DNA of 64,000 nt from Dictyostelium discoideum (taxonomy: Eukaryota), in assembly GCA_000004695.1 (NCBI GenBank), contig CM000155.2:2816001-2880000 (forward strand). Direction: 5' to 3'. A program made the translations under genes and the position numbers. Of this stretch, positions 10,237 to 57,110 are shown piece by piece. Below the pieces are notes generated by a model. That model was not told where the DNA came from. It was given only the letters and a program-made list of their open reading frames with translations, and searched no databases. Position 1 is the first letter of the stretch. Each line of letters starts with the position of its first letter.

Positions 10237-10520
10237 ATAAAATAAAATTAAATTAAATAAAATTAAATAAAATAAAATAATTAAATACATAAAAATTAAT
10301 TTTTTTTTTTTTTTCTTTTATTATTTTTATTTAATTTATAACTTAACCCATGGGATTTAGTTTTTTTTTTTTATTTTTTTTTTTTTTTTTTAAAAAAATA
10401 AAATTCTTTGATTAAAATAAATATAAAATTAAACAACAAATGCTCTAAAAATAATAATTACTTTTATTTAGATTTTTCTATTAACATTTTTCCAAATTTT
10501 AAATTCTTTGAATGTGTTAA

Positions 10521-10551
<31 letters not shown>

Positions 10552-10650
10552 ATTTAAATTGTTTTTTTTTTTTTTTTTTTCATTAATACAAACCCCACAC
10601 ACACATTAATTATTTTATAATATAGTTTTTTAATATAAAAAAAAAAAAAA

Positions 10651-11580
10651 ATGTCAAATAGAAATAGTTTAAGTTTAAATATTAGTTGTGATAAATTATT
10701 AAATTTAAATCAAAAGAAAATACCAAATCTTGAAACTTATTGTTTGGATTATGTATTATCAAAACTTGATTTATTTAATATTGAACAACAATATACAAAT
10801 GATATTAAAGAGAAATTATTACAAAGAATGTTAAGTTTATATCAAAATAAATTTACAATTAAAAATATACCACAACCACAACCAACAATACAAAGAGTTG
10901 AACAATTAATAAATTTTGAAACAACATCACATTTAGATTTATCATCAATTAATATGAATAAATATATACTTGGTAATAATAATAATAATAATAATAATAT
11001 AAATAATAATAATAATAATTTAATAAATTCTTTTTCATTTTTAAGTAAATGTAAAAAATTAACAAATTTAACAATGTCTGGTCAATCGACAATAACATCA
11101 GATAAATTATTACCAATATTAGAAATGGTTGGACATTCATTACAAAGATTAGATTTAAGTAAATGTCCAAGATTAAATGATACAATAATTCATTATATTT
11201 CATTTTATTGTCCTAATTTAGAATATTTAAACCTTGAAGATTGTATCGGTATATCTGGTGCAGTTTTTCAACGAGCTTCGACTTATGATATTAAAAATAA
11301 AAATAATATAATAATTAAATTAACCACAAATAGTAATAATAATAATAATAATAATTATAATAATAATAATAATGATAATAATAATAACAATAATAATAAT
11401 ATTTCACCAAATAATAGTCAAAATAATTTAAATAATTTAACATCAACATCAACATCAACAATAATAACACCAGTATTTATGAATAAAATGTTAAATTTAA
11501 TTGAATTAAATTTATCAGGATGTAAAAGTATAAATCCAAAGAATTTATATTGTTTAAAGACAGCATTTCCATCATTAAAA
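10651..11580 (+). CDS. Leucine-rich repeat protein (cysteine-containing LRR subtype, possibly F-box/LRR). The CDS is cut by an assembly gap at 11581.
   Basis: LDLSKCPRLNDTIIHYISFYCPNLEYLNLEDCIGISGAVF and LIELNLSGCKSINPKNL are LRR_cc repeats. Poly-Asn tracts are present. The ORF runs into the N gap, and the sequence after the gap is low quality. Confidence 0.55.
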
Positions 11581-22286: not shown

Positions 22287-22353
<67 letters not shown>

Positions 22354-22860
22354 TTATAGAAAGTACTGAGTGAATTATTGTATTTTTTGAGATGTTTAGG
22401 AAGTTCTATTGCGTGAAGAGGTGAGTTCCATTGTCTGCTAAATTGTAATAGCTTTAGCGAGATTAGTGAGTCTAATTTATTTTGTTCTTCTGGCCGTTGC
22501 TTTGATTTGATTCTTAATGTTTTGTTTATAACCGCTTGTGTCCTGTCCCATGCAGCTCTTTGTGTTTTAATTAGTTCACGTATGACTTGTTGTCTGTGAA
22601 TTATTATTTCTTTTTCATCGTGAATGAGTTTATTTCTTTTGTGCCAGATTTTATCGAATATAATAGCTATTAAATTGGCTACTAGTGCAATTTGTAGATG
22701 GTTTAAAATCTTCACATTCCAGGTGTGAGTGGTGTGTCCACACTTAGTTAGGGTGTAGTTGAAGATTTCTTGTGTGTTTTTGATGTGGGCTTTGCAGTTG
22801 AAGAATATATGTTCTGAGGTCTCATCTTCCCCACAAATTTTAATTACAAAACTTTTTTTT
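21826..22860 (-). mobile_element. 5'-truncated TRE-type non-LTR retrotransposon copy A. It has an ORF2 C-terminal fragment with the CX2CX7HX4C zinc knuckle, an A-rich tract, a C-module and an oligo(A) tail.
   Basis: Minus-strand ORF 22350..22715 is near-identical to the C-terminal 121 aa of copy B. Upstream it reads ...CGEDETSEHIFFNCKAHIKNTQ, then a poly(A) run (plus 22270-22349 poly-T), then C-module sequence shared with 22900-23100. The oligo(A) end is at 21826-21847. Confidence 0.65.
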
Positions 22861-22861
22861 T

Positions 22862-23256
22862 TGAATTGGATAACGCAATTATTATTTGCTTCTCCTTGAG
22901 ATGCTAGATCTCATTTTATTTTTTTTTTTTTTTTACAGGGTCTTTTTGATTAAAACATCTTTTTTGTCCAAACTTTTTTCTAAATCTTTTTTTATTTTAT
23001 CGTCTGGTTCGTGATTGATGTTTATGACGTATTTGAATTGTTTTTTTTTTTTTTTAATTGAGTTTTATCCACAATTTCGCTTATTTTTTGTAGGCACCTG
23101 TGCTGCTTAATATTTGTGGTGTTCCAATTGCATCAACAAACCATTATCTGTNNNNNNNNNNNNNNNNNNNNNNNNNNNNNNNNNNNNNNNNNNNNNNNNN
23201 NNNNNNNNNNNNNNNNNNNNNNNNNNNNNNNNNNNNNNNNNNNNNNNNNNNTTTTT

Positions 23257-23316
<60 letters not shown>

Positions 23317-24068
23317 TTATAGAAAGTACTGAGTGAATTATTGTATTTTTTGAGATGTTTAGGAAGTTCTATTGCGTGAAGAGGTGAGTTCCATTGTCTG
23401 CTAAATTGTAATAGCTTTAGCGAGATTAGTGAGTCTAATTTATTTTGTTCTTCTGGCCGTTGCTTTGATTTGATTCTTAATGTTTTGTTTATAACCGCTT
23501 GTGTCCTGTCCCAAGCAGCTCTTTGTGTTTTAATTAGTTCACGTATGACTTGTTGTCTGTGAATTATTATTTCTTTTTCATCGTGAATGAGTTTATTTCT
23601 TTTGTACCAGATTTTTTCGAATATAATAGCTATTAAATTGGCTACTAGTGCAATTTGTAGATGGTTTAAAATCTTCACATTCCAGGTGTGAGTGGTGTGT
23701 CCACACTTAGTTAGGGTGTAGTTGAAGATTTCTTGTGTGTTTTTGATGTGGGCTTTGCAGTTGAAGAATATATGTTCTGAAGTCTCATCTTCCCCACACT
23801 GTTGGCATGGCATGTTGTATATTTTTGGTAGTGCTTTCAGTGTGTATCTCCATAATAGATCTCTACCTTTCATGTTTATTATTTTTTTGATTTCTTTAAA
23901 TGGAAGGTGTTTGCTATTAATTTTGGTCATTATTTCTTTTTGGCCAGGAGTTGGTATGAATTTGTTGTGTTCAGGAGATTGAGTTGTCATCATATCCTCG
24001 TATATTTTTTTTAATTTTGGGAGGTGTTCGTAGTGTGTTTGTTTATTTTGTGGAGTTTTTAATTGGGT
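22862..24068 (-). mobile_element. TRE-type non-LTR retrotransposon copy B (ORF2 3' portion of 226 codons, then internal poly(A), then a C-module). It contains assembly gap 23152..23251 and abuts copy A head-to-tail.
   Basis: ORF 23313..23993 ends with the retrotransposon ORF2 C-terminal zinc knuckle CQQCGEDETSEHIFFNC. It is followed on the minus strand by A(50), the gap, a C-module of about 190 bp and the oligo(A) motif shared with copy A. Confidence 0.65.
23152..23251. other. Assembly gap (100 N) inside the retroelement repeat
   Basis: Run of n. Confidence 1.
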
Positions 24069-24469: not shown

Positions 24470-24629
24470 AGATACTTTACGAAGTTCGGTTTGTTAAAAC
24501 CGAAAATAAAAATAAAATAAAATAAAATATAAAAACAATTTTTCGTTTTTCGAAAAATCAGTTTTACGTTTTTATACTTTCGCAAACAAATAATACTTTC
24601 ATTGTTTTAAATTATCTCTTTCATTAAAT

Positions 24630-24686
24630 AATGTGGTATTGTTAAATTTAACAATACCACATTATTTGGACCAATGGTTCGATTCC
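24630..24686. other. Perfect 34-nt palindrome (AATGTGGTATTGTTAAAT/ATTTAACAATACCACATT) followed by an orphan consensus B-box/T-arm (AATGG-TTCGATT-CCATT)
   Basis: Reverse-complement identity was checked by eye. GGTTCGATTCC at 24676-24686 matches the B-box consensus, but no intact tRNA cloverleaf can be folded around it. Confidence 0.5.
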
Positions 24687-42754: not shown

Positions 42755-43253
42755 CCATTACAACCTCAACAATTTCAACCAAAACCACCTTACCAACAAA
42801 GACCACAGCAATTTAGCCAACAACAACAACAACAACAATTTAATCCAAATCAACAACAACAATTTAATCCAAATCAACAACAATTTAATCCAAATCAACA
42901 ACAGCAACAATTTAATCCTAATCAACAGCAACAATTTAATCCAAATCAATTTAATNNNNNNNNNNNNNNNNNNNNNNNNNNNNNNNNNNNNNNNNNNNNN
43001 NNNNNNNNNNNNNNNNNNNNNNNNNNNNNNNNNNNNNNNNNNNNNNNNNNNNNNNCCTATGAATAATCCTAATATTGTTCCACCACATTTTAATCAACAT
43101 CAACAACAAAATCATAACCAAAATCAACCACCTCATCATATGAATAATCCAAATATCATACCACCACCCCAAAGATTTAATAACTCAAATGTGGTGCCAC
43201 ATTTCAACCAACTATCAAATCAAAATCAACCACCCCAACGACCTCAATATTAA
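40788..43253 (+). CDS. WDR33/PFS2-like WD40 protein (pre-mRNA 3'-end processing factor) with a Gly-rich N-terminus and a very long Gln/Pro-rich tail. Exons 40788..41078 and 41270..>42955. The tail resumes after a gap at 43056..43253.
   Basis: [42 protein letters not shown] is the conserved N-terminal block of WDR33/Pfs2/FY. Seven WD repeats follow ([23 protein letters not shown] ... [14 protein letters not shown]). The GTATGT donor at 41079 and the TAATTAG acceptor at 41269 are in phase 0. The (CAA)n/(CCA)n tail is interrupted by the N gap. The stop is at 43251. Confidence 0.7.
42956..43055. other. Assembly gap (100 N) inside the WDR33 poly-Q tail
   Basis: Run of n. Confidence 1.
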
Positions 43254-43388
43254 TATTGTAAATAAAAATTTTTATATTACCAAAAGTTTGTGGTAAACCT
43301 AGTTTTTTTTTTTTTTTCCTGTGCAATAAATATTAGTTATACTTTTTTATAATTATAAAAACAATGTTGTTTAAATAATTCAATAATT

Positions 43389-43419
<31 letters not shown>

Positions 43420-43524
43420 CAACAAAACTTCCCATTTTCATTTTTTTTTTTTTTTTTTTTTAAATTTTTTTTTTTTTTTAAGTCAACTTTTCTTTAATTT
43501 TCATTTCATTTTCAAAATCATAAA

Positions 43525-44379
43525 ATGTTTCAACTTTTGACAAAAACAATAGTATCAAATGTTGGTAAAAATAGTTTAAATAACATTTTTACAAATAATT
43601 CATTTAAAAAAAAAAGATTTTTTTGTAATGTTGGGAAACCAATCGAAATTAATCAACTTAAACAATCGTTCTCAGAGTTATTGAAATTAGATTACAAGAA
43701 AACTCAAGAGGAAGGTTTACCAAAAAATTTATTAGATGTTCAAAATGATATTTTAAAATCAAATGAAAAAGAACTTGATACTCAAACTAGAATGATATCA
43801 TCCATTTTCCTTTGGAGATCATTATGTTTTTTAAATCAAACTCCAAATGTAATTAATAATAATTTTTTTTTAAAATTTATTAATAATCAACCTACTCGCA
43901 AACTAATTAATTTATTATATTAATTATATTTATATTTATTTTATTTTATTTATATTATTTTATAAATAAAATAGAGTATGAAAAAAGAAGAATTAGATAA
44001 ATTATGGAATTTATTAAATATTGATAATAAAGATATAATTAATAAACATGAATATATTTCAATATTAAATCATAGAATTGGTATAAGTTTTACAAGTAGA
44101 TATCTTTTACCAAAATTATTTGAAGATATAAAAAGGGTTGTAAAAGAAGTTAAAGATGCAAATGAAAATAATTCAACACCAATATCATCATTATTACCAT
44201 TAATTAATATAGCATTCACATCATCAGCTCATTTAAGTATGTGGAAAGAAATGAAATATTTAGGTAATGAAATAAGTTTAAATAAAAATGAAATATTTGA
44301 AAACATCAGAAATGCTTCATATGAAATTGATTATTTATTTGATTATACTTCAATTTATCATATTTTAAATTTAAATAAT

Positions 44380-44410
<31 letters not shown>

Positions 44411-45062
44411 CAACATCTCTATTACCATTAATCATTGATACAAATAAAGATAGTGAACCAATAAATTTTGAAAAGTTTAAAACTTTTAGAGTTTATGATG
44501 TTGAATCTTTTTCTTTTAAAAATTTAACAATGAAAACTGAAAATATGTCAACTGAAACAAATGAAAAAGCAATGAATGAATTTAATGAAAATAAAAATCA
44601 AATGAAAAATCAAAAAATTGATAGAAATGGTTATTTTATGACTGGTTTGTATTTTTTTTTTTTTTTTTTTTTTATATCTAATATTTACTAACTATTATTA
44701 TAAATTATTATTTAGAATTATCAAATCAACCATTTATTTTAATTTTAGGTAGCTCATTTAAATTTGATATTTGTTTTGATACAAATTTACAAATGACACA
44801 TAGTGGTGTTATTGATAAAGATTTTAAAAAAGTTCAATTATATGGTACATATGATGAATTTGATAAAACAAAAGTAGAATCAGAATATAATTTAGAAATT
44901 GATCAAAATATTGTACCAGATGATAATGAACCATTTATTCAATTAAAAGGAACTCATAGAAAAATTGAAACCAGAACAAATACTGAAAAAACAATTTATG
45001 ATATGGATGTAATAATTAATTTACAAAGAAGAAAATTATTACATGAAGTTGAAGTAAAATAA
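43525..45062 (+). CDS. Hypothetical protein (about 446 aa), possibly mitochondrial with an N-terminal presequence-like segment. Three exons: 43525..43848, 43975..44644 and 44716..45062.
   Basis: The GTAATT donor and AAATAG acceptor are in phase 0. The GTTTGT donor and TATTTAG acceptor are in phase 1, reconstituting a Glu codon (g|aa). All three ORF-track pieces fall in one consistent reading frame after splicing. There are no recognisable domains. A poly-Q tract is present. Confidence 0.5.
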
Positions 45063-45144
45063 TTTAAAAATAAATTTCTAATTTATATATATATTTAATT
45101 TAAAATTTTAAATAATTTATTTATTAATTTTATTTATTTATTTA

Positions 45145-45177
<33 letters not shown>

Positions 45178-45186
45178 TTTTTTTTT

Positions 45187-47916
45187 TTAATCATCAGAAG
45201 ATAATTGTCTTTTTACTAAATTATGATAAATTCCATCAGTATTATTTAATAATTCTTTATGAGTACCCATTTCTTCAATTTTACCTTGATTAATTACAAC
45301 TACAGTATTTGCATTTATTACAGTTGATAAACGATGAGCAATTACAATGACAGTACGATCTTTCATAATTTCATCGATTGCTTGTTTAACTAAATATTCA
45401 CTTTCAGCATCAAGAGCAGAGGTAGCTTCATCTAATAAGAGGATCATTGGATTTTGAATCATAGCACGAGCTATTGCAACACGTTGTTTTTGACCACCAG
45501 ATAAACGAACACCTCTTTCACCAACTATAGTATCATAACCATTTTCAAACTCTTCAATGAATGAATGAGCATTTGCTTTCTCTGCAGCCGAAATAATTTG
45601 ATCCATTGTTGCACTATCATTACCAAAAGTGATATTATCTTTGATTGAACCAGCGAATAATACAGGTTCTTGTGATACATAACCAATGATACCACGATAC
45701 CAAACTGGATCCAACTCTTTGATATCAATACCATCGAATGTGATTGAACCTGAATTTGGATCATAAAATCTTTCAATCATTGCAATTACAGTTGACTTAC
45801 CACCACCAGATGGACCTACCAAAGCTGTGATTGTACCTTTTGATAATTTCAAATTTAAACCCTTTAAAACACTATTATTTGGTCTAGTTGGATAAGAGAA
45901 TTCCACATCTTTCAATTCAATTTCACCCAATGGATTTTGAATTTGTTTACCACCTGAAACATTGATAGCTGGTACTCTATCGAAAATTTCAAATATACGA
46001 TCCGATGAACCGATTGCCTTTAAGAAATCAGTCATTAAACTACTAATGAAAGCCAAACTCATTGCCAATGAAAGTGTATACAAAAGGAATGAAGTTAAAT
46101 CACCAGTTGATAATGTACCATCTAAAACCTGTCTAGCACCAACATAAACGATTAATACAATTGCCAATTGTGCTACTAAAAATACAATACCACTGAATAC
46201 ACCGGTTGCAACAGCCAATGATTTACCAATTAAATAACTACCATTAATATCTTTTGAATAGAGGTCAATGAATTTTTGTTCCTTTGAAAATGAACGTACT
46301 GTTCTTATATTTGAAATTACCTCTTCACCAGTGGTTGATGATTTTGCTAATTCATCTTGAAATTGTTTACCCAATTGTTTAATTTTCTTACCATATACAA
46401 CGGTTGATATTGCAAGTACAGGTACAATACCTAACATTAATAATGTTAATCTCCAATTGGTAATGAATAATAAAATAACGGAACCAATAATTTGAATTGT
46501 ATATCTAAATAACATTGAGATATTAACAGTGACTGAATTTTGAATCACTTGTGAATCACTTGATAATCTACTTAATAGCTCACCAGTTCTACATTGATCG
46601 AAATAACCAATCTCTTGATTAACAATTGATGAGAATAAATTTCTACGAATACGTGCAACAAATTTTTGACCAGCTAAATAGAATAACCAACTTCTAACCA
46701 ATGTTGAAATTGAACCAATTACGAAAATAACGACCAATGCCAATGTACTTGAATTTAAATTATTAAAACTATGAGTGGTTGCAACGACTTGAACAATTGA
46801 ACCGAAAAAGTAAGGCATAGCCAATGATGTCAATGAACTAAATACCAAAGCAACCATTGCTGCTAAAATAATTGGTAACTCTGGTCTTGATAATTGAATT
46901 AGTCTCTTTAGATTTGAATGTTTAACCTCAACTTTTTTATTTAATCTTTTCTCTTCATTTGATTGATTATAAAATTGTTTCTCTTTATCTGATAATCTTT
47001 TATACTTTTTAAAACTTAATTGTAATGTTATTATATGTAATACTAAAAATAATACCATCAATGGTATACCAACTAAAACAATTACAATTATAATTTCTCT
47101 AACTTTTAATGAATCAAATAATGGACTTTCATTTGGTAAATAACTATCACTACCATTATAAATTTCATTAGATGATGATGATGTTGTTATAATATTATTA
47201 TTAATTGATAAAATTTGTGTAATTGTAAAATATGATTTAATAACATTATAAATTAATGCAATAATTGTTATAATATAACTAATAGTATGATAAATAAAAC
47301 TATCAGAGAATATTAATAACAACCAAAATAATGATATAAAATATGATATTAATAATATATCAAATGTTGAAAAATAAAAAAAGTATTTCATATTAAATGT
47401 ACCACCATTTAATGCTTCAATTTCTGATGAATCATATGATGTTGTTGTTGATGTTAATGTTTGTAGTAGTAGTGATGTTGGTGATGGTGTTGGTGTTGGT
47501 GTTGGGGATGGTGTTGAGGTTGGACTCACACTACCACTATCAGTAGTATTACTATTAATTGATGGATAAAAAATAATGCTTCTTGCATTTGTACTGAAAT
47601 ATAATGCATTTATTGATATTAAATAACCAGCTAATATTACTAATGATACAATTTGGATAAATAATTTAATTGAATTCCTTTGTTTACTATCCAATTTAAA
47701 TTTAAAGAAAATTGTATCTTCAATTAATTCCTCTTCATCAATCTCTTCACCATTTATTGATTTCTTATTATTTAAAGAGAATTGTTTATTTGCATTATTA
47801 ATTCCAAATTTTTGGTCACTACGATTTGTAGTTGATATTGATTGTTTTTGTTGTTGTTTATTATATGTTTCTAATAATGATTCATTTTCTTCATCATTAA
47901 AATTCTTCTTTGTCAT
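45187..47916 (-). CDS. ABC transporter, B subfamily half-transporter (N-terminal extension, then 6-TM domain, then NBD)
   Basis: Walker A GPSGGGKST. ABC signature LSGGQKQRVAIARA. Walker B ILLLDEATSALD. H-loop IAHRLST. An ABCB-type TMD is upstream. Single 909-codon ORF. Confidence 0.85.
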   Translation of the reverse strand: MTKKNFNDEENESLLETYNKQQQKQSISTTNRSDQKFGINNANKQFSLNNKKSINGEEIDEEELIEDTIFFKFKLDSKQRNSIKLFIQIVSLVILAGYLISINALYFSTNARSIIFYPSINSNTTDSGSVSPTSTPSPTPTPTPSPTSLLLQTLTSTTTSYDSSEIEALNGGTFNMKYFFYFSTFDILLISYFISLFWLLLIFSDSFIYHTISYIITIIALIYNVIKSYFTITQILSINNNIITTSSSSNEIYNGSDSYLPNESPLFDSLKVREIIIVIVLVGIPLMVLFLVLHIITLQLSFKKYKRLSDKEKQFYNQSNEEKRLNKKVEVKHSNLKRLIQLSRPELPIILAAMVALVFSSLTSLAMPYFFGSIVQVVATTHSFNNLNSSTLALVVIFVIGSISTLVRSWLFYLAGQKFVARIRRNLFSSIVNQEIGYFDQCRTGELLSRLSSDSQVIQNSVTVNISMLFRYTIQIIGSVILLFITNWRLTLLMLGIVPVLAISTVVYGKKIKQLGKQFQDELAKSSTTGEEVISNIRTVRSFSKEQKFIDLYSKDINGSYLIGKSLAVATGVFSGIVFLVAQLAIVLIVYVGARQVLDGTLSTGDLTSFLLYTLSLAMSLAFISSLMTDFLKAIGSSDRIFEIFDRVPAINVSGGKQIQNPLGEIELKDVEFSYPTRPNNSVLKGLNLKLSKGTITALVGPSGGGKSTVIAMIERFYDPNSGSITFDGIDIKELDPVWYRGIIGYVSQEPVLFAGSIKDNITFGNDSATMDQIISAAEKANAHSFIEEFENGYDTIVGERGVRLSGGQKQRVAIARAMIQNPMILLLDEATSALDAESEYLVKQAIDEIMKDRTVIVIAHRLSTVINANTVVVINQGKIEEMGTHKELLNNTDGIYHNLVKRQLSSDD

Positions 47917-48639
47917 GATTTGTGAACCTTTTTTTATGATTGAATTTATTTATTTAAAAAAAAAAAAAAAAAATTAAAAAAAAAAATAATTATAAAATGT
48001 ATTAAAAAAAAAAAAAGGGATACAAAACAAAGAAATAAAATAAATTACAATAAAAAAGATACAAAAGATAACGTTTTTTTTTTTTTTTAAATAGTTTTTT
48101 TTTTTATTTTCATTTTTATTTTTATTTTTTTTATTTAATTTTTTTTATTTTTTTTGGGGTAAGAATTTGGTGTACATCTTTGCATAAAAAAAAAAAATCC
48201 AAAAAAAAATTAAAAAAATTAAAAAAAATAAAATTAAGCTTATAGGGTTAGAATCGCAACAAATTAAATAGATTATTATTTTGTGAGTGTAAGTGGTCAA
48301 AAAATACGTGTTTTTTTTTTTTAAAATAAATAAAAAAATATTTATTAATTTAAAATGGAAAATATAATTGTGATGAATTTGGTGCATCATGATTTTAATT
48401 TATTTATTTTTTTTATTTTTTATTTTTTTTTTAAAAAATTTTTCTCAAAAATAAATAATTTATTTTCACAAATAAATAAAAAAAATAGTGTTAATTTATT
48501 TTATTTAATAGTAATAAAAGAGAAAAAAAAAAAAAATAATAAAATAAAATTAAATTTGAGATAAACACACTGTTACCATCTAGATTAAATTGTAAAATTT
48601 TTTTTTTTTTTTTTTATTTAAAATTTTTTTATTTTTTTT

Positions 48640-49464
48640 TTAAGATGATACAAATTGTTTTAAAAATGGTAACCAATTTAAAGGTATTGGTGAAGACCAA
48701 ATACCTAAACTTTTAATATTATTATTAATAATTAATTGAAATCTTTGAGTTAATTCTTCAGTTGAGAAAGGTTGATTATTTTCATCAACAGTCATAACAC
48801 CAACAGCCAATTTATTCAATGGAATTGATTGAATTGCAAATTGTAAAGCACTTTGAAAACCTTGAAAAGTTCCAGCATAGGTTGACATTGTATAAATTTT
48901 ATCAACTGAAGTTTGAGCCAACAATGATAAATTCCAAAATGGTGTCCAAGTTGCTGCACAAACCGTTAGAGTTTTATTATATTGATGTAATTGTTTAGCG
49001 AATGAATCAATGAAATTTGCATATCCAATTGAGTCTCGTTCATCACCACCAACTGGTTCAATATCAATATTCCATCCATCGAATCCTTCATCGATTGCAT
49101 GTTGAATAGCAGAGTCAATGAACGGTTGTGGATTATTAATTAATTGACGTGCATATTCTATCACTTCAGGTCTACCAAATGGACAACATGTTGATACCAT
49201 TGGTAAGGTTTTTAAACCCGCTGTTTGTAATGGATATTGAACATCTGTAAAATTATTTACAATCAATGTTGAATTTGCTCCCAAATTAAATCTTTCAAAT
49301 GCTACTGAATCTAAAATTTGAGTTAATGATAAAATTTGTTCTAAATCACTATTTATAGTTTCATTAGTTCTTTCAAGTCCCATCCACGTTAAAACACTTT
49401 GTTCTCTACATTTAACAATAACAACAATTAAATTTATTAAAAATAAAATAATTATTGATTTCAT
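48640..49464 (-). CDS. Secreted glycoside hydrolase family 18-like protein (chitinase or chitobiase-like)
   Basis: It has a signal peptide. FDGWNIDIEP resembles the GH18 DGxDxDxE catalytic motif. The surrounding TIM-barrel-like pattern is aromatic/Gly-rich. The family assignment is tentative. Confidence 0.45.
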   Translation of the reverse strand: MKSIIILFLINLIVVIVKCREQSVLTWMGLERTNETINSDLEQILSLTQILDSVAFERFNLGANSTLIVNNFTDVQYPLQTAGLKTLPMVSTCCPFGRPEVIEYARQLINNPQPFIDSAIQHAIDEGFDGWNIDIEPVGGDERDSIGYANFIDSFAKQLHQYNKTLTVCAATWTPFWNLSLLAQTSVDKIYTMSTYAGTFQGFQSALQFAIQSIPLNKLAVGVMTVDENNQPFSTEELTQRFQLIINNNIKSLGIWSSPIPLNWLPFLKQFVSS

Positions 49465-49867
49465 TTTTTTTCTTTTTTTAAAATAAAAATAAAATAAAAA
49501 AATGAAAAAATAAAAAAATAAAAAAATAAAAATTAAAAAAAAAGATTTTTTTTTTTTTTTTTAATGCCCAAAACTCTGCAAAAAGATATTTTTTAAAAAA
49601 TTTAATGTGGTAAATCTTATTTATTTTTAGTATTTAGTTAATTTAATTGATTATTTTTTTTTTTTTCTTATTAAACAGTTTGAAATTTCATCAATACTCA
49701 AAACAAACAATTCTCAGATTATTGGCGTTCTTTCAATTAATGATTTTTTAGAAAAAATAAATAATTAACTAAACACAAAAAATAAATTAGATTTACTTTT
49801 TTTTTTTTTTTTTTTTTTTGTGTTTTTTAATTTTATAGGAAAGGAAGGATATTTTATTTTTTTAATT

Positions 49868-50077
49868 TTAACAATAATTAAAAAAAAGTGAAACAAACAA
49901 TGAATTAAAACTTTCTGGCATTTCTTTCCAATTCTTTTTTGCATCCATGAACGCATTGAAAACTTCAGAACAATCTTGGCTTTTAATTTTGCAAACTAGA
50001 CCATCAGCTTCATTAGTTTCACCCAACACAAAAGAAAGAGTAATAATGATTAAAATAAAAATAATAACTTTGTTCAT
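49868..50077 (-). CDS. Small secreted Cys-containing peptide (first exon; possible second exon downstream)
   Basis: Signal peptide MNKVIIFILIIITLSFVLG followed by a CKIKSQDC...; 3' end uncertain. Confidence 0.3.
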   Translation of the reverse strand: MNKVIIFILIIITLSFVLGETNEADGLVCKIKSQDCSEVFNAFMDAKKNWKEMPESFNSLFVSLFFNYC

Positions 50078-50887
50078 TTTTTAAAATTTTTATTTATAGT
50101 TTTTTTTGTTATTTTTTTAAAATATTTTAAAATAAATGATTTTTAAAAATAAAATTATCTTATTTTCCTTTTTAAATTACTATTTTTTTTTTTAATTACT
50201 TAAATTTTTTAAAAAAATATATTAAAAAATAAAATAAAATAAAATTAAAAATAATTACCATTCGTCATAACGAATAATTACTATTTCTAATTTCTAATTA
50301 AAGTATTAAATATAAACATAAATTTTTATTCTCATTTTTAAATTCAATGGGTTTAAAAAATTAAAATAGTTTTTTTTATTTTTTTTTTTTTCAAAACAAA
50401 ACCCATTTGCATAAAATTTAATATCTAAATGTTCCAATTAAAGATGAATATATTATTCTGGTAAAAATAAAAAGAGGTATATAACCTAAAACAGCACAGT
50501 TTATTTTTATTTAAAAGATTTTTTATTTTTTTTATTTTTATTTTTATTTTTATTTCTAACAAACAAAACATATTTTAAATTTTCACACCCCCTTACTTTT
50601 TTAATTTTAATTTTTTTTATATTCAGTTCTATTTTTAGTTTTATGATAATATTATTTTATTATATAGAATTAAATAAAAACAAATAGATCAATTAATAAA
50701 TTTTTTTTTTTTTTTTTATTTTTCTTAATCTTATCATGATCATCAAAAACATATATAAATTTTTAAAAAAAAAATAAAATAAACAATTTCCCAAATAAAA
50801 AAATCTTATTTTTTAAAGTTTGATTTATTTTTTTCTTCAGAAATAGAAGAGAGTGAATTATGTTTGAAGGTAATTTTGATTTTAATT

Positions 50888-50934
<47 letters not shown>

Positions 50935-51390
50935 CAAAACAACTTTTATTCTTTTTTTTTTTTTTAAAAAATCAAAGCAACTTTTAATTTTTTTTTTTTT
51001 CTATTATTTATTTAATACAAATACAATTTGTTTAATATTTTTTTTTATATTTTGAAAAAATTTTGGGAAAATGAAGGATTGGGATGTAAATTTTATTCCC
51101 TTCCATTCCTTATGATATTAAGAATATATGGTATGTAACATCCTCTCAATATTTATACTAAATATAAAATTAAAAAATATACTAATTAATTTTATATTTA
51201 GAATATCAGAATTAAATTTAATTTCTTTTTAAATAATATCACAATTAATGATTTTAAAGAAATTAAAAAGAAATTTGAAAATAATTAATTAGTTTATAAA
51301 CGAATTTTAGTTGATATTAAAACTGGCTATTATGATGGGAATCAAGATGAAATTTTATTTAAAAACATGAATATATTTTAAAAGAAAATT

Positions 51391-51545
51391 CACAACTGTT
51401 CTATCAACCACCCATCTGCACCACCAATCACTAATGGCTCACCATCTGCACCACCAACCACAACTGTTCCATCAACTACTCATCTGCACCACCAACCACT
51501 AATGGCTCACCAACTACTCATCTGCACCACCAACCACAATAATAA
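51391..51545. repeat. Tandem direct repeat of about 39 bp, roughly 4 units (...CATCTGCACCACCAACCAC(T/A)A(A/C)TG...). The codon composition is unlike the host (CTG, GGC).
   Basis: Direct observation. One frame is open and Pro/Ser/Thr-rich. Confidence 0.8.
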
Positions 51546-51580
51546 ATTAACTTTGTTTTTAATTTTAAAAAAAAATTTAG

Positions 51581-52330
<750 letters not shown>

Positions 52331-52584
52331 AGTTAAATAAATAAAAAAAGTAATATTAAATTTAATAAAAAAAGTAATATTAAATTTTTTTTTTTTTTTT
52401 TTTGAATTTTTAATTTTTTTTAATTTTTTTTTGAATTTTTTTGAATTTTTTTGAATTTTTTTTGAATATTGTTTTTTTTTTTTTTGTAATTTTTTGTTTT
52501 TTTAATAATTTTTTTTTGTAATTTTTTGTTTTATTAATAATATTTTTTTGTTAATTAAATTTTACTTCATATCATAACAATAAA

Positions 52585-52851
52585 ATGTCCCTTATGAACC
52601 AACAAGAATTAGAAGATTGGGACTTTAGAAGAATCATAATATCCACAAGAAATAGACTACTAGATATCCACAATACACACAATACACCAGAAGTCCAAAA
52701 CGCTATAGCCATGATAAATAATTTTTTGGAAGGCAATGAAAACCCAACCAGTTTATCAGATAGTCTTACTGGTATTCAAACAAATATTCCACTTGCCCAA
52801 CGACTTATCGCTAATTTAATCACAATGTTGAATAATCAACCAGCTCAATAA
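52585..52851 (+). CDS. ORF-D (88 aa) at the left edge of the compositionally foreign island. Function unknown.
   Basis: Open frame with non-host codon usage (CCA, CAC, CTT, GGC). No motif recognised. Confidence 0.3.
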   Translation: MSLMNQQELEDWDFRRIIISTRNRLLDIHNTHNTPEVQNAIAMINNFLEGNENPTSLSDSLTGIQTNIPLAQRLIANLITMLNNQPAQ

Positions 52852-53290
52852 ACCACAGTTCAAGAAACTACAGTTCAACAGTAAAATCTAAACTTAAATA
52901 ATGATTTTTACATTAAAACTATTAAATAAAATACAGATATATTTAAACATCATGAATTTCAAAGAGCGGACAAAGTTAAATTACCACTAATACCTGGTAT
53001 GTCTGATAAGATTGATAATAATAAAAATGGTGGCGGATTATCTCTATTTGAAATAAAACTCCCTATTGAGTACCCTTTTAATTCAATCCTATTTGGAATA
53101 AAGCCAATATCAGTGATTGGCACAGTGAATCGATTTTTAGTTTCTGTAAAGTGTCCATAAATATTGATTGTTTTTTCTTGATTTGGTTTGCACATTCTAT
53201 AATATTATACATAATATTATTTACTAAATTAATTATTGTCGGTCTTGCCCGACTTGATGCCAATGATACGAGGTCGTAGGAACGTAGTTC

Positions 53291-54651
53291 TTACAATTCA
53301 ATCAATGGTCTACCACTCATTCCATTATTAATAACACGATGTTCTTTTGTAACAACAAAACAATAATGAGAATTGTTATTTGCTGCAGTGAGATATACAG
53401 TTGCAGCATATGTTGGACTACGGTTATGAATTGGAATTCCTTTATATGTATTATCATTTGGAACATCTGATTGAGTACCATTGCAAAAATCTTGAATCCA
53501 GCACCAGTTATAGTTATTAATGTCACCAGACATGATTGAACTACCTTCTAATAATTTTTTATTTGTATCATAATCCATATATGATGGTGGAATTAATGGA
53601 TATGGGGTTAATGGTTGATTATCTAGACTAGTTTGGAAATTACTTACTAGAGTTGAAGCAATATCATTTTGAACTGGTGGTAAATTTGCAGTTGCTTGAT
53701 TTGTTGTAAATATTGAATAATAGATACGATCCAATGTTAATACTCTTCCACTTGGAACTGTAAAACTAATACTTTGAATATTTGAATTTTGAGAAGCTGA
53801 AAATGTTTGAACATTGCTGTATAAAATTGGAAGCCCTTCATTTAATTTATTACGTAATTGATCAATAATAATTTGATTTGTCTCAGTTGCAAGATATAAT
53901 GTAATATTTTGGATATTCATTGGAGCTTGAGTTAAATTTGGTGCAGCTGCTAATACTGGTGGACTTGCTGCAGTACCATAAAAACCAAGTGATGTTAATG
54001 GGTTTAATGTAAATTGCAATTGCATAATATCACCAAATATTAAATCTTTATCCAATGATAATATGGTATCATAGATATCACTAAGATAAATTTTTACTGA
54101 GAATTTAGTTGGTACATTTGCTGTTACAGCACCAATTAAATACTGACATTCACTATATGGTTTATCTGCTTGATTTGCTGTATTAATTTGATATCTGTAA
54201 TTTGTTGCATTATTTGATGCAAAACCTGGTGTAAATATAATAGTATCACCACCTGCATTTGGAAATACTTTTGCATAACGATTCATAGTTTGTTGTTGTT
54301 TACGATTTATTTCATTGTAGCTTTTGAATGTTGATGTGCTGATGTTAAATCGAGTAAATATTCACCACTACGCGATTGAAATGAAATTTGACTAAAGAAT
54401 GAAATGTAATCAGCGAATAAATATGGTACATTATTTGCACCACCAGCTGGAATGGTTAAATCAAATTGTAACCAACTTCTTGATAAATTATATACTGAAC
54501 TTGCACCAAGATTGAATTTTATAATTTGACCTTGTGAAGAAAGAGTTGTTGAAGTACCACTTTCTGGTTGAACGACATATGGTACATAACTTGGACCTGT
54601 TTCGTTAAAAGCGGTGTAATCTACTTGACTTGAATGAATTTCTCTTGACAT
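53291..54651 (-). pseudogene. Capsid-like ORF (about 445 aa in total), split by a +1/-1 frameshift near 54290-54306 into 114-aa and 331-aa pieces. It is beta-strand-rich with a jelly-roll-like composition and no basic arm.
   Basis: Two adjacent minus-strand ORFs (54307..54651 and 53291..54286) are separated by a single-nucleotide frame offset. GC is about 38-40%, versus about 25% in the flanks. The sequence is Asn/Thr/Ser/Gln/Tyr/Gly-rich with alternating hydrophobic patterns, typical of viral single-jelly-roll coat proteins. I cannot assign a family without homology searches. Confidence 0.4.
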
Positions 54652-54754
54652 TTTGTATTATATATAATAGAGTATAAATAAATAATATATAAATAATATA
54701 TAAATAAACCAAGCTTGAGCAAGGGGTGGTGGCCAGGTTTAAGGTCGGCACGTT

Positions 54755-55159
54755 TTATATCGTGGTAAGCGGCATGACGCTTTCGTTGTCTTTATGCGCA
54801 ATGTACTTCATAAAATCTTTATGCATATCATAATAAACTTCTTTTTTGAAAAAACACAAAGTAATATTTAAATCAATACCATTCAAATTAATAATTTCAC
54901 CATCACCATCAGTTAAACTAAATGTAAACCCATTTTGATTTGTTGATGTTAATCTTTTACTATATGCTTCAATTGCATTATTTGACCAATTAATATATGA
55001 ATAATCTAGGTTACCAGTTAAATAAATCTCTTGTAATATATCATCATTTCCATTACTACATATATTTGAGTGAATATAAACTACATTATCAATGTTGTAG
55101 GGAATTTTTTTTGAAATTTCGCTTTCTAAACGGCAGTGAATTTTTACACTAAAATACAC
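54755..55159 (-). CDS. ORF-A (up to 134 aa) in the foreign island, immediately downstream (minus sense) of a 14-bp perfect terminal hairpin
   Basis: Open frame. The inverted repeat GTGAATTTTTACAC (55136-55149) and GTGTAAAAATTCAC (55172-55185) overlaps the annotated N-terminus, so the real start is uncertain. Confidence 0.3.
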   Translation of the reverse strand: MYFSVKIHCRLESEISKKIPYNIDNVVYIHSNICSNGNDDILQEIYLTGNLDYSYINWSNNAIEAYSKRLTSTNQNGFTFSLTDGDGEIINLNGIDLNITLCFFKKEVYYDMHKDFMKYIAHKDNESVMPLTTI

Positions 55160-55309
55160 TGTTTATGCATGGTGTAAAAATTCACTAAAATTTTTTTTTT
55201 TTTATAATTAAATTAAAAAACAATTTATTTAATCAGAACAATAAAAAACCAATTTTATTCAGTTATTTGCTTGTTATTTATTTTTTTATAACAAAAAAAT
55301 TTAGTTTGC

Positions 55310-55349
<40 letters not shown>

Positions 55350-55437
55350 ATTTTTTTCAATTTTTTTTTTGTTTCATTTTTGGGGAATAAAATAAAATTG
55401 TTTGGATAAAAAAAAATTGAAAAAAATAATTGAAAAA

Positions 55438-55537
55438 NNNNNNNNNNNNNNNNNNNNNNNNNNNNNNNNNNNNNNNNNNNNNNNNNNNNNNNNNNNNNNN
55501 NNNNNNNNNNNNNNNNNNNNNNNNNNNNNNNNNNNNN
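55438..55537. other. Assembly gap (100 N)
   Basis: Run of n. Confidence 1.
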
Positions 55538-56900: not shown

Positions 56901-56950
56901 AAAAAAGAAGATGGCCAAAAGGAAAAAATAGAAGCAAAAAAGAAAAAATA

Positions 56951-57110
56951 TGTGTCCCATGCCAAAATTACCATATTAATTTCAGCAGCCATATTAATTT
57001 TGGCATGGGACTTATGTCTGCCAAAATTACCGTATTAATTTCAGCAGCCATATTAATTTCAGCATGCACATAGCTGCCAAAATTAATATGGTAATTTTGG
57101 CATGGAAAAA
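56951..57110. repeat. Complex palindromic structure. Two 40-bp direct repeats (GCCAAAATTACC(A/G)TATTAATTTCAGCAGCCATATTAATTT) are each closed by 16-20-bp inverted repeats (TCCCATGCCAAAATTA/TAATTTTGGCATGGGA; GCCAAAATTACCGTATTAAT/ATTAATATGGTAATTTTGGC).
   Basis: Reverse complements were verified by eye. The structure resembles nested TIRs or a hairpin element. Confidence 0.75.

Follow-up and report, generated by a model that had tools for sequence, protein, structure and literature searches.

We analyzed a 64,000-nucleotide stretch of Dictyostelium discoideum chromosome 6 (GenBank assembly GCA_000004695.1, contig CM000155.2, positions 2,816,001 to 2,880,000 of the forward strand), hereafter called the “window”, and focused on a probable viral remnant at positions 52971-55120. 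The window is AT-rich overall (22.5% GC), and the open reading frames (ORFs) around the remnant are ordinary Dictyostelium genes. A first-pass annotation, made from the sequence alone, had described an island at 52560-55200 as a candidate endogenous viral element or a novel mobile element. The co-oriented minus-strand ORFs that it listed (134, 114, 331, and 78 amino acids) and an 88-amino-acid ORF on the plus strand are all present as annotated. In the following, L001 denotes the Heterostelium album locus, L002 the D. discoideum assembly GCA_054883475.1, and L003, L004, and L005 the contigs of further relatives. The features of the locus are listed below.

55135..55186, no strand: perfect 15-bp hairpin with a 22-nucleotide loop (arms 55135-55149 and 55172-55186)
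54755..55120, minus strand: 3′ portion of the gene that precedes the capsid gene, presumed to encode a penton (minor capsid) protein, located by tblastn and tblastx to the relatives
54652..54754, minus strand: spacer from the penton-like fragment to the capsid gene, with a GC-rich patch (up to 50% per 100 bp) and then an AT-rich stretch just before the capsid ATG
54310..54651, minus strand: 5′ part (codons 1-114) of the predicted major capsid protein gene, matching Heterostelium capsid residues 5-129 (tblastn, E 1e-26)
54310..54312, minus strand: frameshift site, a run of four A minus one A, located by frame comparison with the homologues and identical in L002
53291..54310, minus strand: 3′ part of the predicted major capsid protein gene, 41.8% identical to Heterostelium capsid residues 112-449 (E 3e-69)
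53196..53290, minus strand: spacer (95 bp) from the capsid gene to the 78-residue ORF, holding GTCGG-N6-CCGAC and two copies of ATAATATTAT
52959..53195, minus strand: truncated 5′ half (78 codons) of a conserved gene of ~140 codons, identified by tblastn and by its position in the relatives
52585..52851, plus strand: 88-residue ORF, hypothetical protein DDB_G0293424 of strain AX4, between the viral remnant and a transposase remnant

The central feature is the capsid gene. The 114-residue ORF (54307..54651, minus strand) and the 331-residue ORF (53291..54286, minus strand) are one gene, split by a single 1-nucleotide frameshift. The present sequence, ATGAAATAAATCGT, has one A fewer than the ancestral or expected ATGAAAATAAATCGT, and the lost A makes a TAA stop at 54309-54307. 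The 114-residue ORF thereby terminates after ...SKATMK, and the second frame goes on as (E)INRKQQQTMNRYAK, (E)INRK. The Heterostelium and Synstelium proteins are unbroken at this site (...SKMTMKINRK...). Residues 5-449 of the Heterostelium protein are preserved in the window, and the frameshifted ORF described earlier is real, with a conceptual product of ~453 residues instead of roughly 445. The same 1-nucleotide deletion interrupts the full-length ORF in the second assembly. Since one A was lost in the homopolymer run, the capsid gene is a pseudogene. We also considered programmed frameshifting and rejected it, because the site has no canonical slippery heptamer and the homologues point to a plain 1-nucleotide loss.

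The public gene models do not reflect this structure. In the AX4 model DDB_G0293426 (493 residues), one “intron” cuts out 38 conserved codons and so bypasses the frameshift, and a second “intron” leads from the end of the capsid gene over a stop codon into the next ORF. The newer annotation, ACTFIT_008972 and ACTFIT_008973, likewise fuses the 331- and 78-residue ORFs across the stop. All of these models are artefacts. A literature search for PPL_12645, DDB_G0293426, and DDB_G0293424 by name was negative.

What does the split gene encode? Pfam, NCBIfam, and Protein Data Bank (PDB) sequence searches with all of the island ORFs and a 72-member capsid alignment gave no match. In a collection of 5.8 billion proteins, the conceptual 453-residue product has homologues outside D. 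discoideum only in Heterostelium album (PPL_12645, 43% identity) and Synstelium polycarpum (45%). Both of these gene models are fusions, and their N-terminal parts align with the 134-residue ORF of the window (ORF-A). Homologue searches by word index yielded few family members, and the size of the family became apparent solely from an exhaustive profile search of 1.84 billion representatives. This search gathered a capsid family of 1204 representatives, typically ~450 residues long.

For the fold, an AlphaFold2 prediction from five sequences reached a predicted local distance difference test (pLDDT) score of only 44 and was discarded, and an alignment of 77 sequences was then used. The resulting model of the Heterostelium capsid protein (residues 138-549 of P0002) has a pLDDT of 93.4 and a predicted template modeling score of 0.92. 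In a Foldseek comparison with the PDB, the top matches are the capsid proteins of Singapore grouper iridovirus (SGIV, E 3.5e-13) and Sputnik (E 1.5e-11), Vp54 of Paramecium bursaria chlorella virus 1 (PBCV-1), and the mavirus, vaccinia D13, and faustovirus proteins. These matches have a probability of 1.00 and template modeling (TM) scores of 0.5-0.56, with sequence identities of at most 12%. Nearly all of the top 50 matches in the PDB and BFVD are double-jelly-roll capsid or scaffold proteins. The model of the homologue thus predicts that the split ORF is a double-jelly-roll major capsid protein of the Bamfordvirae type, so that the earlier description of a jelly-roll coat-protein-like product was right and can be made more specific.

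How does the gene order of the relatives compare with that of the window? The Heterostelium block (L001), which spans 12 kb, contains an A32-like ATPase, a 275-residue ORF, a 450-residue capsid ORF, and a 141-residue ORF. It also contains a gene for a 553-residue protein with a Ulp1 protease domain (Peptidase_C48, E 1e-6), an unassigned 691-residue ORF, an integrase gene (rve plus chromodomain, E 1.5e-11), and a DUF5906 superfamily-3 helicase gene (E 4e-19). In L003, the order is protease, 278-residue ORF, capsid gene, 131-residue ORF, and A32 ATPase. The 19-kb L005 carries an rve integrase (E 4e-13), a 273-residue ORF, the capsid gene, a 139-residue ORF, an A32 ATPase, and a Ulp1 protease. 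The order of penton-like gene, capsid gene, ~140-residue gene, and A32 ATPase is thus common to L003 and L005. In L004, an ATPase-like gene lies directly upstream of the capsid gene. Cellular-type genes are also found on the metagenomic contigs, namely an ATG8 homologue (PF02991) at L004 13952-14338 and a SET-domain protein at L005 8560-9126.

By their gene content and size, as read from these sequences, the relatives correspond to Polintons or Polinton-like viruses (PLVs) as described in PMC4028283 and PMC4642659. As in the Polintons/Mavericks (Krupovic, Bamford and Koonin 2014, PMC4028283), a double-jelly-roll capsid gene stands beside a presumed penton gene, and the relatives share with them the A32-type ATPase, the adenovirus- or Ulp1-type protease, and the rve integrase. 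In contrast to the Polintons, no profile recognized a protein-primed polymerase in the relatives, and the superfamily-3 helicase (DUF5906) is present instead or additionally. The Heterostelium 691-residue ORF has polymerase-like motifs by eye only, and has no Pfam, NCBIfam, or PDB match. In addition, L001 and L005 have no terminal inverted repeats (TIRs) of at least 40 bp. The homology of the capsid gene to the PLV/Maverick sets is borne out by the profile matches, by relatives on virus-sized contigs with ATPase, protease, and integrase, and by a published assignment to the capsid cluster MMPC_100.

The fold would also suit a different source, namely a virophage proper or a giant virus (Nucleocytoviricota). 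Capsids of both groups are among the structural matches, with similar scores, and the virophage capsids (Sputnik 3j26; mavirus 6g43 and 6g45) share the double-jelly-roll fold at Foldseek E values of 1e-11 to 1e-10 and TM scores of ~0.5. However, the sequence identity to the capsids of both groups does not exceed the 12% given above, and the capsid profile has zero matches among the PDB sequences, the Sputnik and mavirus chains included. None of the 72 family members matches a Pfam capsid family, and the neighboring ORFs in the window are ordinary Dictyostelium genes, which argues against a giant virus. The relatives lie on 7-19-kb contigs or in 12-kb insertions with rve integrase, Ulp1 protease, and A32 ATPase, an arrangement that fits Polintons and PLVs. 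Furthermore, Bellas et al. placed the capsid in cluster MMPC_100, outside the virophage clusters 45-46. We therefore regard a giant-virus or virophage origin as very unlikely.

The genes on both sides of the capsid gene are also viral, and both are truncated. Upstream, the mechanically defined 134-residue ORF-A spans 54755..55159 (minus strand). Its window segment 55090-54782 aligns with residues 167-270 of the Heterostelium 275-residue ORF (57.7% identity over 104 residues, tblastn E 9e-33), and the tblastx alignment with the 273-residue ORF of L005 (40.7% over 113 residues) extends the homology up to 55120. The last 40% of the gene is therefore retained, and the first ~60% is missing. In L001, L003, and L005, a conserved gene of ~275 codons comes just before the capsid gene. 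Its product is presumably the penton protein, since the gene directly precedes that of the capsid protein and is of suitable size, and since this arrangement is typical of virophages, PLVs, and Polintons (PMC4028283). A search of the IMG/VR viral contigs with the penton profile gave no confirmed locus.

Downstream, the 78-residue ORF aligns at window 53159-52971 with residues 15-75 of the Heterostelium 141-residue ORF (tblastn E 0.03 in a small search space). Its position directly after the capsid gene matches that in L001, L003, and L005, and it aligns with their ~140-residue genes. Both ends of the remnant thus fall inside genes. The downstream gene of ~130-140 codons always follows the capsid gene in these relatives (L001 6629-7054, L003 4281-4676, and L005 11417-11836). 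It has no Pfam, NCBIfam, or PDB match, and its product may be a further virion protein.

The short palindromes noticed in the first-pass annotation, GTCGG-N6-CCGAC and the two ATAATATTAT copies, are indeed located between the capsid gene and the 78-residue ORF. This spacer contains a small predicted 5-bp stem with a z-score of only -1.0 against shuffles, and the palindromes are not statistically remarkable. The spacer 54652..54754 before the capsid gene possibly contains a promoter, and its folding is no better than that of shuffles (z 0.19). A comparison of L001, L003, L004, and the window revealed no promoter motif, for example of the TCTA late type, that consistently precedes the genes. We also considered whether the GC-rich spacers might be RNA genes or attachment sites derived from tRNAs, and rejected this, since the Rfam and tRNA scans stayed below threshold and the folding resembles that of shuffles.

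What has the window lost? Homology searches with the relatives' proteins found no trace of ATPase, protease, integrase, polymerase, or helicase in the 64-kb window, and tblastn with the A32-type ATPase and cysteine protease of L001 and L003 returned nothing at E<1. The earlier statement that no Rep, reverse transcriptase, or integrase is recognizable holds in the Pfam and homology searches. A helicase remnant is present in the other D. discoideum assembly: at L002 3924-5395, a split sequence matches the Heterostelium helicase in two pieces (29.9% and 24.3% identity, joint E 4e-36).

A close counterpart is the Polinton-like insertion in Heterostelium album PN500 (the PPL_12645 locus). It shares with the window the capsid gene (43% identity), the penton-like gene (58%), and the order of penton-like gene, capsid gene, and small ORF. 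The Heterostelium copy has kept ATPase, protease, integrase, and helicase and has intact capsid genes, whereas 2.2 kb is left of the window copy. The flanking host genes differ, and the two copies are thus independent insertions.

The locus has been recorded before. Bellas et al. (2023, PNAS, PMC10120064) screened protist genomes for the capsid genes of PLVs, Mavericks, and virophages. Their Table S1 lists one capsid hit in D. discoideum AX4, four in H. album, 13 in Synstelium, and nine in Cavenderia fasciculata, and zero in D. purpureum, D. citrinum, D. intermedium, and D. firmibasis. In Table S5, the D. discoideum hit is assigned to AAFI02000208.1 (positions 11578..10269) and to cluster MMPC_100, which also occurs in Paulinella; it is a BLASTX match with 26.8% identity to a metagenomic capsid (E 4.9e-30). 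We found that AAFI02000208.1 (12,382 bp) corresponds to window 43056-55437, between two assembly gaps, and the published hit to window 54633..53324. Predicted polintons were also reported in Polysphondylium pallidum (now Heterostelium album), Dictyostelium fasciculatum, and Acytostelium (Yutin et al. 2013, 2015; PMC3671162, PMC4642659).

The capsid locus is therefore already catalogued, and is new neither as a kind nor as a locus. Contrary to the proposal of a novel mobile element, the fragment belongs to a type already known, that of Polinton-like viruses or Maverick-type elements. The MMPC_100 entry in PMC10120064 is the same locus, published as a BLASTX table hit alone. The frameshift, the truncated neighboring genes, the hairpin, the wrong AX4 gene models, and the loss of the rest of the element are absent from that entry.

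Next, we examined the composition, since the island had been called foreign, with a jump in GC content to 38-50% and non-host codon usage. The measured GC content of 52560-55200 is 29.6% overall and 25-35% per 300-bp window, and 45-50% is reached solely in two short intergenic patches (~54700-54800 and 53240-53290). The two capsid ORFs have a GC content of 0.30-0.33, a third-position GC content (GC3) of 0.11-0.12, and a codon adaptation index (CAI) of 0.70, with the window's own genes as the CAI reference. These values lie inside the range of 16 host ORFs of the window (GC 0.16-0.35, GC3 0.06-0.19, and CAI 0.62-0.80). The compositional claims are thus not borne out, and the GC step is the usual contrast between Dictyostelium coding DNA and AT-rich intergenic DNA. 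The capsid genes of the relatives are themselves AT-rich (GC3 0.12-0.20). Because the related elements are natively AT-rich, host-like codon use is uninformative about the residence time in the genome. Within 54700-54800, a ~90-bp patch of ~50% GC spans the end of the penton-like ORF and runs into the spacer before the capsid gene. The last codons of this ORF are rare in Dictyostelium, and its sequence departs from the homologues after ...HKD. The patch has no RNA family match and no special folding.

Has the capsid gene been domesticated? In this case, the host would express and use either the 331-residue C-terminal ORF or a product made despite the frameshift, for example as a capsid-derived antiviral factor. 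The single interruption of the frame, the host-like codons, and the annotation of gene models in two assemblies are consistent with such a role. However, the “introns” of these models drop conserved coding sequence and skip a stop, the frameshift site offers no slippery heptamer, and the native AT-richness of the relatives means that host-like codons do not imply host selection. Moreover, the four Dictyostelium species without a capsid hit in PMC10120064 Table S1 provide no conserved orthologue, and both adjoining viral genes are truncated. Taken together, these points make domestication improbable. A capsid product, such as that of the 331-residue ORF, might also hamper the capsid assembly of related viruses. 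This idea stems from the clean frame, with one frameshift and no stop in 453 codons at 22% GC, and we give it a chance slightly smaller still. If true, it would represent a capsid-derived immunity gene in a model amoeba with no known natural virus.

Is the island correctly assembled? A mis-assembly, or a contaminant joined to Dictyostelium sequence, might be suspected, as the island lies in a repeat-rich region between the assembly gaps 42956-43055 and 55438-55537. In contrast to this idea, the independent gapless assembly L002 carries the island with the same flanks on both sides, and the identity to the window is 100% from 51879 to 55339, a segment that contains the frameshift and both junctions. 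L002 also runs colinear with the window through these junctions and through the gap 55438-55537, which corresponds there to 257 bp of AT-rich DNA. The Dictyostelium-like composition and codon use also argue against a contaminant. Mis-assembly, contamination, and sequencing error are thus excluded as far as two assemblies allow, and we regard an artificial origin of the island as having almost no chance. The 100% identity suggests that the two assemblies come from the same strain lineage, and therefore they carry no information on natural populations.

The two assemblies part at the AX4 gap 58168-58267. Rightwards of this gap, the window has no match to L002 1-5979. L002 has at least 6 kb where colinearity is lost, including the split DUF5906 helicase remnant. 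Either the gap hides several kilobases, or the two assemblies differ structurally.

The right-hand hairpin was previously described as a perfect 14-bp structure bounding the element. A perfect hairpin is indeed present, with arms of 15 bp, and it is predicted to fold with a free energy of -22 kcal/mol (z -6.2). Only four inverted repeats of at least 14 bp with at least three G/C occur in the 64 kb, as compared to ~0.15 in shuffles. The boundary role fails, because the hairpin starts 15 bp past the end of the penton-like homology (55120), where the viral gene is cut mid-sequence. It lies just outside the point where the gene was cut, and is thus a mark of the break or a part of the flanking DNA rather than a viral terminus. 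We rejected the possibility that the hairpin is a fold-back copy of the penton sequence, since the homology stops outside it. In a search for terminal inverted repeats across the island, only low-complexity A/T repeats pair; the hairpin is local and is unpaired with the left side.

Based on the homology, the synteny in the relatives, and the predicted fold, we conclude that 52971-55120 is very probably what is left of an integrated Polinton-like double-stranded DNA virus (a Polinton/Maverick or PLV of the double-jelly-roll capsid lineage), now decayed and non-autonomous. The first-pass proposal, an endogenous viral element whose jelly-roll capsid gene carries a frameshift, is thereby upheld. 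We propose the following course of events. The source virus would have been ~12-20 kb in length, with rve integrase, penton, major capsid protein, ~140-residue gene, A32-type ATPase, and Ulp1-type protease, and would have inserted itself into the germline DNA of an ancestor of D. discoideum. Deletions, or other repeats that inserted there, would afterwards have removed all but the complete capsid gene, the final 40% of the penton-like gene, and the initial half of the small gene. Later, one A would have been lost from the homopolymer run in the capsid gene. The fragment has no replication, integration, or packaging genes, and would thus be immobile and produce no particles. It is most likely inert today.

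Several observations weigh against this explanation. The window lacks the features of a Polinton/Maverick in the strict sense: it contains no terminal repeats, target-site duplication, or integrase, and we therefore infer integration by an rve enzyme from the relatives. The modelled fold is that of the 43%-identical Heterostelium homologue, rather than of the D. discoideum sequence. The penton profile has only chance-level matches in the PDB (trypsin, and the PBCV-1 penton P1v1 at E 0.59), and we infer the penton assignment from position and size alone. The helicase remnant of L002, absent from the window, lies 3.7 kb upstream of the penton-like fragment in an order and orientation unlike those in Heterostelium, and may belong to the same element. 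Finally, the capsid frame is strikingly clean, with one frameshift and zero in-frame stops over 453 codons in a genome of 22% GC, which means either recent decay or some residual constraint.

We know of no published natural virus of Dictyostelium discoideum. The capsid-gene fossil in its reference genome is therefore direct evidence of infection by a Polinton-like virus in the D. discoideum lineage. Since the close relatives show no hit, the infection probably took place not very long ago. The result also corrects the AX4 model DDB_G0293426, which was stitched together from pieces of a viral pseudogene, and possibly DDB_G0293424. Its value is limited, as the capsid hit is already published, the fragment is most likely inert, and other dictyostelids have intact copies with more genes.

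The remaining features adjoin the remnant or lie elsewhere in the window. The 88-residue ORF (DDB_G0293424) has no Pfam match and no match to the L001 or L003 proteins. Its GC3 of 0.27 and CAI of 0.46 are slightly outside the host range, and the ORF is short. The adjoining transposase remnant noted in the first-pass annotation is confirmed as a frameshifted DDE_Tnp_4 sequence at 51973-52197 (E 9e-4, below the Pfam cut-off). The segment 51973-52330 is a C-terminal remnant of such a PIF/Harbinger-type transposase (ILADKGY..., and in another frame IENVFSRIKS). The 88-residue ORF is encoded on that strand as well, and a single transposon comprising both may have truncated the viral element. A tandem repeat with a C/A-rich unit (CCACCATCTGCACCACCAACCAC...) occupies 51390-51540, within AT-rich intergenic DNA.

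At 56950-57110 of the window and at L002 5621-5941, we found a small palindromic repeat, TGTCCCATGCCAAAATTACC...GGTAATTTTGGCATGGGAC, with a perfect 17-bp hairpin at 56954-57011. At least two copies lie between the helicase and penton remnants. The repeat looks like a miniature inverted-repeat transposable element, and its microRNA matches in Rfam are at chance level.

Farther to the left, two near-identical ORFs (121 and 226 residues, with a common C-terminal sequence and no Pfam match) flank the gap 23152-23251, within 22350-23993. Three tRNA genes (20863, 24202, and 24392) adjoin this pair, which resembles copies of a tRNA-gene-associated retroelement. The tRNA-His gene is closely followed, at 24626-24667, by a perfect 19-bp inverted repeat with a 4-nucleotide loop (AAATAATGTGGTATTGTTA), one of the four non-trivial perfect hairpins in the window.

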